Positions 15,747-23,623 of a DNA stretch of 64,000 nt are shown piece by piece. Every line of letters starts with the position of its first letter. Positions within the stretch are counted from its first letter, which is position 1. Both the position numbers and the translations under genes were made by a program. Source of the DNA: an uncultured Nitrososphaeraceae archaeon (GTDB lineage Archaea > Thermoproteota > Nitrososphaeria > Nitrososphaerales > Nitrososphaeraceae); the NCBI GenBank assembly GCA_963765895.1, contig CAVXZB010000088.1:122236-186235 (forward strand), in the 5' to 3' direction. The notes under the pieces were generated by a model. It did not search any database and was not told the DNA's origin. It saw only the letters and a list, made by a program, of their open reading frames with translations.

Positions 15747-16662
15747 ATGAATCGAACACTTATTTTTGTTCCTGGTAACAGTGCACGATTTATTAGTAGC
15801 GCCAAAAAATCAAATGCAGATATTGTATGTTTTGACTTAGAGGATTCAGTTACCTTGTCATGAGAAATCTTCTGCAAGAGAAATGATAGGAGAGGCTATC
15901 AGCCATACAGATGATTTCAAAAATACATTCAGTTTGTACGTAAGGACGAACTCATATGATTCTGGACTCCTATTCACAGACCTTACGGCAGTAATACAGA
16001 AAGGAATTACTGGTGTCGTCATACCAAAGGTCAACGATAATACAGAAATCAGCGAAATATCATCGTTTATTTCTAGACTTGAAATAGAGAGAAAAATCGG
16101 GCATGACGTTATAAAAGTGGTGCCATCTATAGAAACAGCCAAAGGAGTTGTAAATGCATATTCGATAGCAAAGTCAGATATTCGAGTGAATCTATTGGTT
16201 TTTGGCGTTTTCGATTTTCTTAATGATATGCATCTTGAGTATGTTGAAAATGGTGGAATCGAATATTCATATGCAAGGGCCAAAATTCCGGTGGATGCAA
16301 GGGCAGCTGGAGTTGCTGCGATTGATGCTATTTGGCAGAAGGTAGATGATATGAATGGTCTAATAAATGATACCATACTTGCGAAGAGATTGGGCTATGT
16401 AGGAAAGTGCATCATTCATCCTACTCAGATTGAACCAGTTCACAAGATATTTATTCCCAGTAAGAATGAAGTGGAATGGGCCAAGAAAATAATAGAGTCC
16501 CTAGGACCATCCATGGAAAAGGGGAGTAAAACCGGTGCAGTCAGGATTGATGGTAGAATGATAGATGCAGTACATTACAAACACGCAAAGACGATATTAA
16601 ATAACATTAATGAGGACTCGCAGACCGTACTCAGAACTTTAATTTTTCTCTATTATCCATAG
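15747..16662 (+). CDS. CitE/malyl-CoA lyase-like (HpcH/HpaI) CoA-ester lyase, frameshifted near 15850
   Basis: N-terminus MNRTLIFVPGN...FDLEDSV joins ORF 15883-16662 (VRTN, IPKV, IETAKG, G..GKCIIHPTQI, GRMIDA). Confidence 0.9.
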
Positions 16663-16730
16663 TTGAAACTCATTAAATATAAAGTGATATCTATTCATTG
16701 CATACAATGCACGAGATGAGGAGATGAGAT

Positions 16731-17339
16731 ATGTTTACTGGCATAATAGAAGGCACAGCTCGTATCAAGTCAATCACAAAGCTCGAAAATGGAAAGAGAG
16801 CGGCTGGGATGAAAATGACAGTCGATTTAGGCAGATTAGGAAATGGGATAAAAGTTGGCAATAGTATAAGCATTAATGGCACATGCTTGACCGTCACAAA
16901 AATTAACGATAAACATTATGCTGATTTTGAAATCGTAGGTGAAACTATAAGACGAACTGCCCTTGGGTCGTTAGGAGTAGATGAAAAGGTAAACATAGAG
17001 CGGTGTCTACGGTTCGGGGATAGGATAGAAGGTCATTTGGTCTTGGGTCATATTGACGGAACTGGTAGAATTGAGAAGGTTATTAACCTTTCAGATGAGA
17101 AAAAAATATGGATAAGATTAATGAATAGAAAGTTATTGCGTTACGTAGTCCCTAAAGGATCTGTAGCTATAGATGGGATAAGTTTGACGGTTGTTGATGT
17201 AAAGCACAATCGTTTCTCGGTGGCTGTAATTCCCCATACTGCGATTGTTACCACTCTTGGGAAGAAATCCAAAGGCGACGCAGTTAACATCGAAATAGAT
17301 GTTGTTAGCAGGTATGTCAATATTCTTCAACCAAAGTAG
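16731..17339 (+). CDS. ribE: Riboflavin synthase, bacterial/eukaryotic homotrimeric type
   Basis: MFTGIIE start, SISINGTCLTV, VNIER, GHLVLGHID, GSVAIDGISLTV and VNIEID. Confidence 0.95.
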   Translation: MFTGIIEGTARIKSITKLENGKRAAGMKMTVDLGRLGNGIKVGNSISINGTCLTVTKINDKHYADFEIVGETIRRTALGSLGVDEKVNIERCLRFGDRIEGHLVLGHIDGTGRIEKVINLSDEKKIWIRLMNRKLLRYVVPKGSVAIDGISLTVVDVKHNRFSVAVIPHTAIVTTLGKKSKGDAVNIEIDVVSRYVNILQPK

Positions 17340-17393
17340 TGGTAACAACTCCTTTTTTAGTAAACTATATAAAATCGTGAACATTTCATTGAA

Positions 17394-18092
17394 GTGTTGC
17401 ATTCAATAGAAGAAGCGATCGCAGCGTTAAGATGTGGTCAATTCATTCTCGTTCATGACGATAAAGGACGGGAGAACGAAGTTGATATGGTAATTCCTGC
17501 TGAATATGTTAAACCAGAACATATCTCAACTATGAGAATGGCTGCGGGCGGATTAATATGTCTAGCTGTATCAAATAGATACGCGATCAAATTAGGGCTT
17601 ACATACATGTATAGTATTATGGAGTTGATGGCAAAAATCAATCCTTTATATTCTAAATTGGCATCTGGCATATCTCCTTATGGAGACAGGCCATCGTTTT
17701 CGATTGCCGTCAACCACCGGGACACATTTACAGGCATTACTGATACCGATAGAGCACTTACCATTTCGAAAATGGCTGCGGTTTGTAACAATATTGATAC
17801 CACAGGAGTAGAAGAATTTGCCACATGTTTTCGTTCACCTGGTCATGTGCCAATATTGATTGCCTCAAGCGGGTTATTACGTGAAAGGATTGGACACACA
17901 GAATTGTGCATATACCTTGCCCAATTGGCCGGTCTGGTTCATGCTGTGACAATCTGTGAAATGCTAGATTCAGAAACATATAGATCATTATCCGTTACTA
18001 AAGCAGAGAAGTATGCTGAAGATAACAATCTATGTATTCTCGATGCAGAGCTATTAAAGAGATACAATGAGGTTTCAAAAGTTGAAAGCTAA
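17394..18092 (+). CDS. ribB: 3,4-dihydroxy-2-butanone-4-phosphate synthase (archaeal type)
   Basis: DDKGRENEVD, GLICL, TGITDTDRALT, FRSPGHV, R.GHTE and CEMLD motifs. Confidence 0.95.
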   Translation: MLHSIEEAIAALRCGQFILVHDDKGRENEVDMVIPAEYVKPEHISTMRMAAGGLICLAVSNRYAIKLGLTYMYSIMELMAKINPLYSKLASGISPYGDRPSFSIAVNHRDTFTGITDTDRALTISKMAAVCNNIDTTGVEEFATCFRSPGHVPILIASSGLLRERIGHTELCIYLAQLAGLVHAVTICEMLDSETYRSLSVTKAEKYAEDNNLCILDAELLKRYNEVSKVES

Positions 18093-18549
18093 GTTGGGCC
18101 TCGTTGTTTCTGAATTTAATAACGAAATCACATACAAAATGTTGGCTAGAGCAAAGCAATACATCAAGAGAGCAGATGCCTCAATACGATACGTTTGTTA
18201 CGTCCCGGGATCATTCGATATGCCACTTATGATTGGAGAATTACTGAAAAAAAAAGATGTTGATGCCGTGGTAACTCTGGGAGCAGTAATCAAAGGAGAA
18301 ACAGGTCATGATGAGATTATAGCAGGCAATGTTGCTAGACTAATTGCTGATTTATCCTTGCGATCTGGTAAGCCAGTTTCTCTGGGGGTTACAGGGCCGA
18401 GTATGACAATCGAACAGGCTATGGAAAGAATAGAAATTATTCCAATGCGTGCAGTCGATGCTGCTATAAAAATGGTATTTAGAATGAGAAAGATTAGGAA
18501 TGAGAAACTGAAGTCACATACTATGAATTCAGTGAGTATAATAAAATGA
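18067..18549 (+). CDS. ribH: 6,7-dimethyl-8-ribityllumazine synthase
   Basis: VVSEFN..IT, VPGSFDMP, LGAVIKGETGHD and KPVSLGV motifs. Confidence 0.95.
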   Translation: MRFQKLKAKLGLVVSEFNNEITYKMLARAKQYIKRADASIRYVCYVPGSFDMPLMIGELLKKKDVDAVVTLGAVIKGETGHDEIIAGNVARLIADLSLRSGKPVSLGVTGPSMTIEQAMERIEIIPMRAVDAAIKMVFRMRKIRNEKLKSHTMNSVSIIK

Positions 18550-19322
18550 CTGTCCAACTCAGTATCATCCGTATTGATGGATACGGTCTATGGACATCCA
18601 CACTGGGCACAGATAGAGAGTCTCAGCTACAGATGCTTCAAGCAAGGATATATTATGATATTCAACGACTATTTTCACAAAGGGATTGCATCGCATATAG
18701 TAATCGGTTCGACGAATATTTTGCCGTTACTACTTGTCTTTCAGTTCATGGTCATATACCCATCGATCTAGAACTTGCAAAGTCATATCCCAACCTGAAT
18801 ATGTCAATGGCGATTGGAAGTGGTGATACACCCTATAAAGCAAACTTGGATGCCTATGAAGTTAGAAGAAGTGGGATAATACAAGTCGATGGACATAAGA
18901 TATTTGCCAGAAATTTAAATGATGTACTGGACGCGAATTCAAAAGATAATCATGTGAAGATAATGCACATAGATATAGATGGATCATCTACGATTAGTAA
19001 TCAGCTATCGCCTTATGAAGTTACCTCACTTGTCATAAAGATATATTCAAGGTTATCTGACGAATTTCTTAAAATTGAATCGTTAACATTTTTTCTTGGA
19101 GGAGACAATTTCATGGTAATAACTAATGATGCAACTGATAATGAAATACAGCGAATTATTAATGATATCAGCACGGATCTTGGAGTTAAACTAAACTGCG
19201 GCATAGGGATAGGCAGGACAGGCAAAGGAGCGGCTGAAGCTTCGACGAGAGCATTGGACACCATTAGACACATGCGAAAAAGTGGAAAGGTTCAGCCAAT
19301 CTATGAAATACAATGTCTCTAG
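18546..19322 (+). CDS. gch3: GTP cyclohydrolase III (ArfA)
   Basis: I.IDGYG.WT..LG.DRE..LQ.LQ, RFD, HIDID, FLGGDNFM and GIGIG motifs. Confidence 0.9.
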   Translation: MTVQLSIIRIDGYGLWTSTLGTDRESQLQMLQARIYYDIQRLFSQRDCIAYSNRFDEYFAVTTCLSVHGHIPIDLELAKSYPNLNMSMAIGSGDTPYKANLDAYEVRRSGIIQVDGHKIFARNLNDVLDANSKDNHVKIMHIDIDGSSTISNQLSPYEVTSLVIKIYSRLSDEFLKIESLTFFLGGDNFMVITNDATDNEIQRIINDISTDLGVKLNCGIGIGRTGKGAAEASTRALDTIRHMRKSGKVQPIYEIQCL

Positions 19323-20599
19323 TCATAAAAAATGCGAGCTTATTACTTGGAAAAAACCTAGATCATATAGACATTGGGTTTATCGAAGTAGGCAAGAATG
19401 GAATAATTAAGAAGGCTAGCGCTGCAAAATATGAGAGTAATGATAATTATAAATTTTTAAACATTCTAGATGCTGAGGGTTATTTGATAGTACCTGGATT
19501 TATTAATGCCCATACTCACATAGGGGATTCTATCGGAAAGGACATGGCAACTGATCGTGGTCTAGAAGCGGTTCATCCTATGAGAGGAATAAAAAAGAAA
19601 ATACTTGAAAAAAGCAATTCACAACATTTGAGTACTTTGATGAGGGCATCGGCGATATCCATGATGAAGAATGGGATAACAACATTCGTAGATTTCAGGG
19701 AAGGTGGTACAGAAGGTGTAGCAATTCTTAGAAATGCAATTTTCGATCTCCCGATAAAGTGTTTAATACTTGGAAGAGTAGAATATTATTTTGATATAGA
19801 TCGGGATGGACAGCATGAAGACAAGAATGTGCAGCCAATAAAAAAAAGCAAACTCCCAGTTAAAGTGTTAGAGCTAGCAACTAATCTTTTGAATATTAGC
19901 CATGGATTCGGGATAAGTGGCGCAAATGAAAATACCGATTTATCATTAAGACAATACAACGAATTAATAAACAAACTCTCGAAATCAGATGGCCCTAAAA
20001 ATAGGACCAAAAATATTCAATTAGGAATTCATGCTGCAGAATCTAAAAGCACAGTAGAATTCTCTTTACGTAGAACTGGTAAGACTGAAGTTTATAGGAT
20101 AGTTAAACATCTGAAACCTAATTTTGTGGTTCATATGACTCAAGCAACCGATAAAGATATCTCGTTGATAGCCAAGAATGAAATAGGAATTGTAGTCTGT
20201 CCCCGTGCCAATGGAGTCCTAGGTTGCGGGATCCCACGGATTACACATATGTTAAAAAGTGGATGTAAAGTCGCAATCGGTACTGACAACATAATGATAA
20301 ATAGTCCTGATATGTTTCGAGAAATGGACTACATTTGGAAGACCTCCAGGTCAAGCGGAATAAATTTAGATGCAAAGAATGTGCTGAAAATGGCTACCAT
20401 CAATGCTTCTGATATACTCCACCTCAATTCAGGGTGCATCGAAGTCGGCAGATCTGCTGATTTCATATTTCTTGATAAGACTAGCATAGAATTGTATCCA
20501 GTACATGATCCATATGCCTCAATAGTCCACAGAGCAAACCAAAATTCGATCAAAGGTGTCATGATCTCTGGCAGATTCGTTGACGGATCGGATCTATAA
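19313..20599 (+). CDS. Metal-dependent amidohydrolase (deaminase-like) inside the riboflavin operon
   Basis: PGFINAHTHIGD, G.T.F.DFREGG, HAAE, VHMT, CPRAN and GTDN motifs. It overlaps gch3 by 10 nt and ends 3 nt before arfC. Confidence 0.9.
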   Translation: MSLVIKNASLLLGKNLDHIDIGFIEVGKNGIIKKASAAKYESNDNYKFLNILDAEGYLIVPGFINAHTHIGDSIGKDMATDRGLEAVHPMRGIKKKILEKSNSQHLSTLMRASAISMMKNGITTFVDFREGGTEGVAILRNAIFDLPIKCLILGRVEYYFDIDRDGQHEDKNVQPIKKSKLPVKVLELATNLLNISHGFGISGANENTDLSLRQYNELINKLSKSDGPKNRTKNIQLGIHAAESKSTVEFSLRRTGKTEVYRIVKHLKPNFVVHMTQATDKDISLIAKNEIGIVVCPRANGVLGCGIPRITHMLKSGCKVAIGTDNIMINSPDMFREMDYIWKTSRSSGINLDAKNVLKMATINASDILHLNSGCIEVGRSADFIFLDKTSIELYPVHDPYASIVHRANQNSIKGVMISGRFVDGSDL

Positions 20600-20602
20600 A
20601 GC

Positions 20603-21256
20603 ATGTATGTGATAATCAATTCGGCCATGACGGTTGACGGTAAAATTGCAACGATAATAGGAAATTCTACAGTGTCGTCGATGGAGGACCTACGAAGGGT
20701 TCATACGATAAGATCATCAGTAGACGGCATTATGGTAGGTATATCAACTGTTCTTATGGACAATCCAAGACTCACAGCTAGGCTTGACAAGGTACAGGGA
20801 GATAGAGGAGAACCTACCAGGATAATAATAGACAGTACAGCTAGAATACCACTGCAATCAAGGATTTTACAATCTGCTTATAAAGTCAGGACCATAATCG
20901 CTGTAACGAGAAGAGCGAAAAGTAATAGAATTAAGAAGATACGAAATACTGGCGCAATGGTCATGACTGCAGGAACAGAAGACGTCAATCTGAAAATGGT
21001 GTTTGCACGATTAAAAGAAATGGGATTCAAAAAAATTCTTGTCGAAGGAGGTGGCGAAATTAATTGGTCTGTTCTTAGATTGGGTATCGTCAACGAATTG
21101 ATTGTAACAATAGCACCAAGGATCGTAGGTGGCAGATCAGCTACTACCATCGTTGAAGGATACGGATATTCAAAAATGTCCGAGGGAATAAGGATGAAGT
21201 TAAAAAAGATTGTCAAACAAGACGGTGGTGAGATAGTCTTGTACTACATGTTATAA
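20603..21256 (+). CDS. arfC: 2,5-diamino-6-ribosylamino-4(3H)-pyrimidinone 5'-phosphate reductase (stand-alone RibD reductase domain)
   Basis: AMTVDGKIA, R...DGIMVG..TVL.DNP.LT, RIIIDS and VEGGG motifs; no N-terminal HAE/PCxxC deaminase domain. Confidence 0.92.
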   Translation: MYVIINSAMTVDGKIATIIGNSTVSSMEDLRRVHTIRSSVDGIMVGISTVLMDNPRLTARLDKVQGDRGEPTRIIIDSTARIPLQSRILQSAYKVRTIIAVTRRAKSNRIKKIRNTGAMVMTAGTEDVNLKMVFARLKEMGFKKILVEGGGEINWSVLRLGIVNELIVTIAPRIVGGRSATTIVEGYGYSKMSEGIRMKLKKIVKQDGGEIVLYYML

Positions 21257-21383
21257 AACTCATTATTATGAAAATTATTAATTACAGTGGTAGTGCTTTA
21301 TGAATTGGCTGATCAGTACGAGTTTAGCCTTCATACGATTGAGGGGTTTGACTACCTATGTCCAGAAAATTTAATCATATGGT

Positions 21384-21902
21384 CTATCTCCTTAATGATA
21401 CATCATTCGATATTTGTTGAATTTTGTATCTTAGAGCTTCTTTAATTTTGCTATTGTCTATCATGTTCAATGGTTCTTTACAATTGCTACATTTGAAGAA
21501 AACTTCCATAGCAGAATCGAACTTTACATAAGGACAATCTTTGTTACCACAGTGATAGAACTCTGAAGATTCTTCATATTCGAGACGTTTTTGTAATCTA
21601 TCTAGAATTTTTTTCTTCTGGTTGTCTATAAAATTATCGACCTGATCTCCTTTCGCACGCCATCTATATACAAACCAACCTTTCTTCTCATCCTTAACCC
21701 GTATACCGGTAATTAGCGCCTTTCCAAACATGTCGTACAAGACTTTCCTTATTACATTAATTCTAAGGCCTGTAGCTCCTGCAATTTCCTCATCAGTAGC
21801 GTCTTCCGTACTTAAGAGAGAGCGTGCAACTTTTAAGTATTCCTCCCCTCCGATTAAGTTAGCAATTTTAACAAAAGAATCATCCTGTTCAATATAGCGC
21901 AT
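21384..21902 (-). CDS. tfe: Transcription factor E (TFIIE-alpha homolog)
   Basis: TDEEIA...L.IN.IRK.LY winged helix, GWFVYRW and FYHC...C...F.C..C...L Zn ribbon. Confidence 0.95.
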   Translation of the reverse strand: MRYIEQDDSFVKIANLIGGEEYLKVARSLLSTEDATDEEIAGATGLRINVIRKVLYDMFGKALITGIRVKDEKKGWFVYRWRAKGDQVDNFIDNQKKKILDRLQKRLEYEESSEFYHCGNKDCPYVKFDSAMEVFFKCSNCKEPLNMIDNSKIKEALRYKIQQISNDVSLRR

Positions 21903-22192: not shown

Positions 22193-23623
22193 TTAGAGGA
22201 CAGTCATTTTAAAGCCATATTCACCTGAAATGTGGGCATTATTGCTGTGTCTATTCTGATCTCTGCCGTATCTGCTACCGCCGCTACCATAACTTCGACT
22301 ACCGCCGCTACCATAACTTCGATTGCCATAGGATCTGTTTGTATTGTTACCATAGCCGCGCCTATACTGATCTCTACCGTATCTACTACCGCCGCTACCA
22401 TAACTTCGACTGCCATAGGATCTGTTTGTATTGTTACCATAGCCGCGCCTGTATTGAGGTCTACGATAAGAATTTTGTTGGGAAACTGGAATTTTGACGC
22501 CCATTTCATCGTTGAGTCTTCGGATGGGATGTTCAGTTTGGTTTAAAATCCTAGAAAAGTCATCAACTCTATCATGAGAGACCAAGGATATAGCTCTACC
22601 GGTTCCTCCCGCCCTAGCAGTTCTCCCTATTCTGTGGAAATATATCAAGGGATCTCCGGGAACGTCATAGTTGATTACATGACCTACTGCTGGAACATCT
22701 ATTCCCCTTGACGCTATGTCAGTGGCAACAAGGATATCATCAGTCCCTTTTTTGAATCGATACATTGCGTTATCTCTTTGTTTTTGCGAAAGATCTCCAT
22801 GAATCGTTACTGCGCTAAATCCATTGTGCTTCAATTCGCCGGCAAGTCTATGCGTCCTTTGTTTAGTCGCAGCAAAAACGATGGTCTGCTTCTTATCTCT
22901 ATTTCTAATGAAATCACACAAATGTTTGAATTTTTCCTTCTCATCCACAATAAGATATGATTGATCTATAGTTTCCAAACTCAGCTCCTCTTCGTTTAGC
23001 CTTATTTCCCGAACATCTTTCATATATTCTTGTGCTAGGCGCAAAATTTCTGGCGGCATAGTAGCAGAGAACAAGCATGTTTGTCTATCTTCGTTAACAT
23101 AAAAGAGTATGAATTTGATGTCATCGATAAATCCCATATCTAGCATTCTATCAGCTTCATCCAGAACAACAAACTTTACGTGGTCTAAGTGAATTGAGCC
23201 CCTCTTGACATGATCTATCAATCTTCCAGGGGTTGCTACTACTATTTGTACCCCTTTTCTCAATTGATCATGCTGTATGCCGATGCTCTGGCCACCATAG
23301 ACCGATACAGTTCTAACATGAACATATTTTGCGAATTTATTAATCTCATTCGTTACCTGCATTGCCAATTCCCTAGTTGGGACCAATATCAAAACTTGAA
23401 TCGGTCCATTGGGTTTTAACTTAGTCAATAATGGCAACGAAAACGCCGCTGTCTTACCTGTGCCTGTATGTGCCTGTCCGATGACATCTACACCTCTCAA
23501 AATATACGGTATAGCTTCTTCTTGGATCGGAAAGGGCATTTTAAATCCATTTTCTTCAAGTGCCTTTAGTATTTCAGCACTCATTCCTAATTCTTTGAAT
23601 GTTGGTGTCAACTTTTTATTCAC
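22193..23623 (-). CDS. DEAD-box RNA helicase with an R/G/Y/S-rich C-terminal tail
   Basis: Q motif, AHTGTGKT, PTRELA, TPGR, DEAD, SAT and HRIGRTAR motifs. Confidence 0.96.
   Translation of the reverse strand: MNKKLTPTFKELGMSAEILKALEENGFKMPFPIQEEAIPYILRGVDVIGQAHTGTGKTAAFSLPLLTKLKPNGPIQVLILVPTRELAMQVTNEINKFAKYVHVRTVSVYGGQSIGIQHDQLRKGVQIVVATPGRLIDHVKRGSIHLDHVKFVVLDEADRMLDMGFIDDIKFILFYVNEDRQTCLFSATMPPEILRLAQEYMKDVREIRLNEEELSLETIDQSYLIVDEKEKFKHLCDFIRNRDKKQTIVFAATKQRTHRLAGELKHNGFSAVTIHGDLSQKQRDNAMYRFKKGTDDILVATDIASRGIDVPAVGHVINYDVPGDPLIYFHRIGRTARAGGTGRAISLVSHDRVDDFSRILNQTEHPIRRLNDEMGVKIPVSQQNSYRRPQYRRGYGNNTNRSYGSRSYGSGGSRYGRDQYRRGYGNNTNRSYGNRSYGSGGSRSYGSGGSRYGRDQNRHSNNAHISGEYGFKMTVL
22256..22456 (-). 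repeat. Near-perfect duplication of about 87 bp plus an extra 21-bp unit in the helicase tail
   Basis: QYRRGYGNNTNRSYG(S/N)RSYGSGGS...RYGRD occurs twice, and RSYGSGGS three times. Confidence 0.9.

Follow-up and report, generated by a model that had tools for sequence, protein, structure and literature searches.

An amidohydrolase of the MJ0699 family in an archaeal rib operon as a candidate pyrimidine deaminase of riboflavin and F420 biosynthesis

The rib operon of an uncultured Nitrososphaeraceae archaeon

Among the enzymes by which archaea make riboflavin and the F420 head group, the pyrimidine deaminase is one of the last still to be assigned. A 64,000-nucleotide stretch of DNA from an uncultured Nitrososphaeraceae archaeon (GenBank assembly GCA_963765895.1, contig CAVXZB010000088.1, positions 122,236 to 186,235), referred to in its full length as the window, carries a riboflavin operon in which an amidohydrolase gene is located between arfA, encoding guanosine triphosphate (GTP) cyclohydrolase III (GCH III), and arfC, encoding the reductase of the pathway. 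An earlier reading of this DNA, referred to here as the original prediction, proposed that the amidohydrolase is the deaminase. This report is focused on the comparative evidence regarding that proposal, and its value lies in added support for an idea that is already published, not in discovery.

Genes in the window were assigned with Pfam and NCBIfam profiles, and their coordinates and families bear out the originally described order ribE-ribB-ribH-arfA-amidohydrolase-arfC (Table 1). A gap of 54 nucleotides separates ribE and ribB. From ribB onward the junctions are tight, as had been noticed: ribB and ribH overlap by 26 nucleotides, given the ATG at 18067 as the ribH start, ribH and arfA by 4, and arfA and the amidohydrolase gene by 10, followed by a spacer of 3 nucleotides before arfC. 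The arfC product is a reductase only, as originally described; PF01872 alone was matched, the RibD model TIGR00326 was matched just over positions 142–333, and no deaminase domain was found with Pfam and NCBIfam. The source genome is 88% complete, and absences in it are to be read with that limit; the names given to close homologues of its genes agree with an origin in the Nitrososphaeraceae. The arfA gene of the operon is its sole GCH III match, and GTP cyclohydrolase II (GCH II) has no match in it. Metatranscriptome contigs from four soil or rhizosphere runs, 95–99% identical, cover 16600–21400, and one contig of 8510 nucleotides spans all six genes; contigs of this kind are no proof of transcription or of one continuous transcript and are not counted as evidence.

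Table 1. Genes of the rib operon and its surroundings in the window.
Gene and product	Position	Strand	Profile match or remark
citE-like HpcH/HpaI aldolase gene	15883-16662	+	just upstream of ribE
ribE, bacterial-type riboflavin synthase, two lumazine-binding domains	16731-17339	+	PF00677 E 9.7e-45; NF006767 209.8 bits, cut-off 155
ribB	17394-18092	+	PF00926 E 1.8e-52; TIGR00506 203.4 bits, cut-off 177.45
ribH, 6,7-dimethyl-8-ribityllumazine synthase	18067-18549	+	PF00885 E 1.2e-35; TIGR00114 130.1 bits, cut-off 84.6
arfA, GTP cyclohydrolase III (GCH III)	18546-19322	+	PF05165 174.1 bits, E 4.2e-51
amidohydrolase, MJ0699/NF005552 ('PyrD') family, predicted 2,5-diamino-6-ribitylamino-4(3H)-pyrimidinone 5'-phosphate deaminase	19313-20599	+	PF01979 E 5.9e-44; NF005552
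arfC, 2,5-diamino-6-ribosylamino-4(3H)-pyrimidinone 5'-phosphate reductase, 217 residues	20603-21256	+	PF01872 only; TIGR01508 207.6 bits, cut-off 186.45
tfe, convergent, closes the rib unit	21384-21902	-	
DEAD-box helicase-like open reading frame	22193-23623	-	C-terminal tail of repeated Gly/Tyr/Arg/Ser-rich units

Family, catalytic residues and predicted fold of the amidohydrolase

The amidohydrolase comprises 428 residues and scores 326.6 bits against a cut-off of 294 on the NCBIfam model NF005552, which corresponds to PRK07213 'chlorohydrolase', and all other deaminase and chlorohydrolase models of NCBIfam score far under their own cut-offs. It is 36% identical over 361 residues (E 6e-61) to MJ0699, which itself reaches 589 bits on NF005552 and which an exact look-up returned as Q58110/AAB98692.1, a 380-residue amidohydrolase described as an 'atrazine chlorohydrolase isolog'. 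Owing to this score and this homology, the gene in the window is, by sequence, a member of the MJ0699/NF005552 family, also referred to as 'PyrD', and it is the only NF005552-like gene of the source genome. The euryarchaeal members of the family are known here by names and accessions alone. The same homologue search yielded a Methanocaldococcus lauensis relative (identity to the same Methanotorris query 59–64%) whose source name is 'Pyrimidine deaminase archaeal predicted'; the SEED label of the family has this name with EC 3.5.4.26. A protein atlas look-up returned unnamed amidohydrolase clusters only.

The deaminase idea is already in print from genome context. According to the available text of Rodionova et al. 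(2017; PMC5397151), orthologues of RibD-type deaminases are apparently missing in Archaea, and the 'PyrD' family was put forward for the archaeal deaminase step by Osterman, Overbeek and Rodionov (2010, as cited in PMC5397151), a prediction that Rodionova et al. repeat. Furthermore, HVO_2483, 34% identical to MJ0699 (Q58110), is listed as a prediction, 'also predicted for MJ0699', and is placed between arfC and the phosphatase gap in the accessible part of Pfeiffer and Dyall-Smith (2021; PMC8305020), where three gaps of the pathway remain and two of them have candidates. The sections available of a riboflavin review from 2026 (PMC13028884) name no archaeal deaminase. The original prediction therefore re-derived a published hypothesis.

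The motifs originally noticed in the translation are all present, namely H67-T-H69, H240-A-A-E243, H274, and G323-T324-D325. Among 16 diverse members of the family, H67, H69, D72, K94, E130, H240, E243, H274, R298, N300, G323, D325, and N326 are invariant and T324, E337, and R407 nearly so, and a separate alignment of 23 members agrees on the catalytic set. An AlphaFold2 model computed with 23 family sequences as input has a predicted local distance difference test score (pLDDT) of 91.2 and a predicted template modelling score (pTM) of 0.92. The catalytic residues are located on or beside the predicted strands 63–68, 236–241, 271–274, and 320–322, and the arrangement is that of the (beta/alpha)8-barrel of the HxxE deaminase group, in which HxH follows strand 1, strands 5 and 6 carry the His of HxxE and a further His, respectively, and Asp comes after strand 8. 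The nearest structures found by Foldseek, with TM-scores of 0.73–0.84, are methylthioadenosine/adenosine deaminases, AtzA/TrzN, isocytosine deaminase, TM0936, and guanine deaminases, and Foldseek gives a probability of 1.00 to HxxE-type enzymes. Within this group of amidohydrolases, HxxE marks the deaminases, which is consistent with these neighbours. By chemical reasoning, isocytosine and guanine would share the 2-amino-4-oxo edge of the ring with the substrate proposed below. A close solved structure was not found in the PDB by sequence, the closest match (E 9e-23) covering the C-terminal half only, and Pfam gave no match to PF00383 or to PF02633.

The retained HxH, HxxE, His, and Asp residues, together with the predicted fold, indicate that nothing in the catalytic machinery of such a deaminase is missing. 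The protein is thus, judged by its sequence and model, a probable HxxE-type deaminase with intact catalytic residues and a family-specific layer of charged residues. A second PF01979 amidohydrolase of the source genome (G000:C24:4834-5822) gives two successive matches separated by a TGA and may be a frameshifted or interrupted gene.

Gene linkage and competing enzymes

The original prediction suggested a neighbourhood analysis, and the linkage to rib genes is conserved. The genome collection was scanned with an alignment of eight sequences, and the best 80 loci, all from Nitrososphaeria, encode proteins 42–88% identical to that of the window. arfA is directly upstream of the amidohydrolase gene in 74 of the 74 loci with enough upstream sequence, arfC is directly downstream in 74 of the 76 with enough downstream sequence, and all six genes were found in 64 of the 80. 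Because of these upstream and downstream counts, the arrangement is not attributable to chance. Furthermore, the order ribB-ribH-arfA-amidohydrolase-arfC is present in 20 of 20 sampled genomes of one coded family (f2).

Linkage was also observed directly in other Thermoproteota, in a sample of 151 genomes. Of these, 23 contain an NF005552 match that passes the cut-off, and 50 have GCH III. A match to NF005552 at E <= 0.001 is found in 108, many being longer paralogues whose genomes lack arfA or arfC, and the evidence is reported as physical linkage in place of a clean co-occurrence table of the family against arfA and arfC. The family occurs in the rib clusters of at least seven other families of Thermoproteota, at 21–37% identity. 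In family f19, arfA adjoins the amidohydrolase gene in 5 of 5 genomes, three of which were read as ribH-arfA-amidohydrolase and two from coordinates only. The other arrangements are arfA-amidohydrolase (G117), an amidohydrolase gene divergent to ribB-ribC-ribH-arfA (G045), arfC-arfA-ribB-ribC-ribH-amidohydrolase with a convergent creatininase gene alongside (G021), and amidohydrolase-arfC (G119, G087, and G147). The non-thaumarchaeal clusters contain an archaeal RibC-type riboflavin synthase (L122 6583-7047, L124 8492-8962, and L125 7601-8068), detected as a weak DMRL_synthase match beside the true ribH, whereas RibE of the bacterial type is used in the window and in other Nitrososphaeria; the candidate deaminase therefore travels with either type of synthase.

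This linkage bears on the alternative that the protein is an unrelated nucleobase or nucleoside deaminase travelling with rib genes, such as a 5'-deoxyadenosine, S-adenosylhomocysteine/methylthioadenosine (SAH/MTA), guanine, or cytosine deaminase. Its structural neighbours are such enzymes, the automatic names of family members are 'cytosine/adenosine deaminase-related hydrolase' and 'chlorohydrolase', and some homologues are not linked to rib genes. However, the protein scores 111.8 bits against a cut-off of 522 on the 5'-deoxyadenosine deaminase model (NF005557), 78 against 375 on the guanine deaminase model, and 79.3 against 779 on the MTA/SAH deaminase model (NF012037). The linkage to arfA or arfC persists in very distant lineages, down to ~21–27% identity, and the source genome holds no second NF005552-like gene. 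Such an unrelated deaminase is quite unlikely.

A RibD-type deaminase elsewhere in the genome, together with an absence of conserved rib linkage, would have spoken against the original prediction. None was found in the source genome at its 88% completeness, whose only gene of the CDA fold (PF00383) encodes a 180-residue dCMP-deaminase/ComEB-like protein, and the linkage is conserved as described above. In the sample, the RibD model is matched at its cut-off in 0 of 151 genomes, and ~59 have a reductase-only match.

The amidohydrolase is also found in lineages in which the usual start of the pathway was not detected. Three genomes of family f3 (G002, G116, and G028) are 97–100% complete, G002 being 100%. 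G002 and G028 contain the module amidohydrolase-arfC-cofG-cofH (L119 8463-13709 and L120 8744-13031), and in G116 only the amidohydrolase gene and arfC were read. The NCBIfam scores in G028 are 231 bits against a cut-off of 186 for TIGR01508, 463 against 213 for TIGR03550, and 517 against 374 for TIGR03551. Searches for GCH III, with the family model and with a protein query, for GCH II, and for lumazine synthase gave no match in these three genomes or in G087 and G147, and G002, G116, and G087 have no creatininase match either. CofH uses the deaminated product, and a deaminase that makes the ring for CofH fits this module; a deformylase would have no substrate in the genomes without a GCH III match. 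The f3 genomes give the impression of riboflavin auxotrophs with F420 head-group synthesis retained, and the diaminopyrimidine in this lineage may come from a salvage route or from an unknown GTP cyclohydrolase.

Regarding the deformylation step, the source genome contains two creatininase-family genes, at G000:C84:398315-399013 (L001 1447-2253) and at G000:C23:59431-60099 (L002 1483-2190), with a purU-like formyltetrahydrofolate deformylase gene immediately upstream of the latter. No creatininase gene is present within the rib cluster, as originally stated, and the two genes elsewhere in the genome are an addition to that statement. Both are candidates for ArfB. Both also score under the cut-off of the ArfB model (NF033501; best 45.2 bits against 180), so that the thaumarchaeal deformylase itself is a presumed one.

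The original prediction allowed that the amidohydrolase might supply the deformylase step, alone or in addition to deamination. A formamide hydrolase that replaces ArfB and deformylates the GCH III product would agree with an operon without a creatininase gene, with the low ArfB scores of the two creatininase-family genes, and with the ability of amidohydrolases to hydrolyse amides. This role is nevertheless very improbable: apart from the two genes of the source genome, a creatininase-family gene is found in 50 of 50 arfA-positive genomes (the family is common overall, in 117 of 151), it adjoins arfA in G119, and it is located beside the amidohydrolase gene within one and the same rib cluster in G021. 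Moreover, the amidohydrolase gene is kept next to arfC in G002, G116, and G087, the genomes without a detected GCH III or creatininase, and HxxE is a mark of deaminases. A bifunctional enzyme for deformylation and deamination would account for a cluster without arfB, with nothing specific in its favour, and is extremely improbable given the same evidence and a single active site with one catalytic set. Neither form of the deformylase alternative is thus upheld.

Proposed reaction, counter-evidence and comparison with known systems

The amidohydrolase is probably the C2 deaminase of 2,5-diamino-6-ribitylamino-pyrimidinone 5'-phosphate. This agrees with the original proposal, supported here by the conserved linkage to rib and F420 genes, by the absence of a detected RibD-type deaminase, and by the intact HxxE residues. 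Briefly, ArfA would open GTP, a creatininase-type ArfB encoded elsewhere would take off the formyl group, ArfC would reduce the ribosyl side chain, and the amidohydrolase would hydrolyse the C2 amino group of 2,5-diamino-6-ribitylamino-4(3H)-pyrimidinone 5'-phosphate to yield 5-amino-6-ribitylamino-2,4-pyrimidinedione 5'-phosphate and ammonia. The dephosphorylated product would then be supplied to lumazine synthase for riboflavin and to CofH/CofG for the F420 head group. The enzyme is predicted to be a mononuclear-metal deaminase of the amidohydrolase superfamily with the HxH/HxxE/H/D set. By analogy with solved relatives, H67, H69, H240, and D325 would hold a single metal with its hydroxide, and E243 and H274 would relay protons to the nitrogen of the ring and to the ammonia as it departs. 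The metal hydroxide would attack C2 of the 2-amino-4-oxopyrimidine ring, at the edge shared with the substrates of guanine and isocytosine deaminases. That K94, R298, and R407 bind the ribityl phosphate is a guess only.

The data show the family, the catalytic residues, the predicted fold, and the gene linkage, and from these we infer what the substrate is, whether it is phosphorylated, and in which order the steps occur; the order and the form of the substrate are taken from the literature on Methanocaldococcus jannaschii. Gene context cannot order the steps, the amidohydrolase-arfC-cofG-cofH module places the enzyme merely somewhere before CofH, and the 2-amino-4-oxopyrimidine ring is common to both substrates; a deaminase of this pathway could thus act on another intermediate, either the ribosyl form before ArfC, as in the bacterial order, or the dephosphorylated ribityl compound. 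This variant is unlikely, as the order for M. jannaschii is reduction followed by deamination in the available parts of two reports (PMC5397151; PMC8256712), and the conserved basic residues K94, R298, and R407 would, as a guess, suit a phosphorylated substrate. A wider statement is reasonably likely: the family would be the real archaeal pyrimidine deaminase of riboflavin and F420 biosynthesis, with an amidohydrolase fold that arose independently of RibD/Rib2, and would also act with ArfC to feed CofG/CofH where GCH III, GCH II, and lumazine synthase were not found.

Several observations weigh against this reading. The original prediction asked whether the gene had already been characterised: its function is predicted in print, and no biochemical or genetic characterisation of any family member was found in open-licence PubMed Central and bioRxiv, subscription journals being outside this scope. 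The neighbours of the predicted fold also include enzymes other than deaminases, e.g., chlorohydrolases and imidazolonepropionase. In families f11, f13, and f23, which account for 19 of the 50 arfA-positive genomes, the best homologue reaches just ~50–130 bits on NF005552, and no rib gene was found within ~7 kb of it in the 5 of 5 genomes examined; these homologues retain the signature residues. Within Nitrososphaeria, one locus (L014) has no arfC within 1.7 kb after the amidohydrolase gene, and in another (L026) arfC is located 1.1 kb further on. The amidohydrolase-arfC pair persists in f3, G087, and G147 without a match to GCH III, GCH II, or lumazine synthase, which does not account for the supply of its substrate, and another compound could be its target there. 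Finally, TTAC-N10-GTAA, the RbkR operator consensus for Thaumarchaeota in the available text of PMC5397151, has no copy upstream of ribE.

Among known systems, the MJ0699/HVO_2483 'PyrD' family is the most direct point of comparison: the window protein scores above the NF005552 cut-off, has the 36% identity to MJ0699 given above, and shares the invariant residues and the rib linkage. It differs in being ~48 residues longer than MJ0699, mostly owing to a low-confidence insert at ~160–185, and the function of the family is itself a prediction. The N-terminal domain of RibD in bacteria and plants and the fungal Rib2 are similar in the proposed type of reaction, i.e., hydrolysis of the C2 amino group, and Rib2 likewise deaminates after reduction (PMC8256712, in its available part). 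By contrast, RibD and Rib2 have the CDA fold, whereas the window protein, without PF00383, is predicted to be a TIM-barrel amidohydrolase. The non-homology that the original prediction expected is consistent with this difference, and the protein would be a non-homologous replacement if the proposed function is right.

At the TM-scores of 0.73–0.84 stated above, the predicted fold resembles those of the isocytosine deaminase Vcz (7WW2/8IS4), guanine deaminases (6OHB, 2I9U, and 2UZ9), TM0936 (1P1M/1J6P), and the Pseudomonas aeruginosa adenosine deaminase crystallised with methylthio-coformycin (4GBD/4DYK). The solved HxxE deaminases have the same HxH, HxxE, His, and Asp set, and the mechanism is probably alike. 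However, identity to them is 15–22% in structural alignments, and the window protein is under the curated cut-offs of the scanned models of characterised enzymes. Furthermore, D72, K94, E130, R298, N300, and R407 are specific to its own family, and a phosphorylated ribitylamino-pyrimidine is its proposed substrate. ArfB (MJ0116 type, creatininase fold) is likewise a hydrolase of the same archaeal pathway, but it belongs to the PF02633 family and its candidates are encoded separately in the source genome and beside the amidohydrolase in the rib cluster of G021.

If the assignment is true, it fills a gap left ever since the elucidation of the pathway in M. jannaschii, and two unrelated folds perform the same step of the pathway. 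If the module feeding CofG/CofH is also true, a still unknown source of diaminopyrimidine is implied in those archaea. Nearly all databases name these genes 'amidohydrolase', 'chlorohydrolase', or 'cytosine deaminase', and correct names would alter metabolic readings. For example, a 'cytosine deaminase (COG0402)' and a creatinine amidohydrolase in Thaumarchaeota are read as a route of creatinine degradation in the accessible text of PMC7848895. This reading may be an annotation artefact, because the only NF005552-type gene here is in the rib operon and the creatininase homologues are ArfB candidates.

As for the surroundings of the operon, exact matches to the RbkR consensus number 3 in the window against 1.17 expected by chance, none of them near the operon, and matches with 2 mismatches number 429 against 412 expected, none of them in 16663–16730. 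No regulatory RbkR site is claimed at the operon. In many of the 80 related loci (uncounted), ribE is likewise preceded by a homologue of the citE-like gene. The citE-like gene of the window matches its family profiles only from ~position 51–53, so that its N-terminus may be short or its start miscalled. The tail of the DEAD-box helicase-like reading frame contains RRGYGNNTNRSYG twice, followed by SYGSGGSR repeats.

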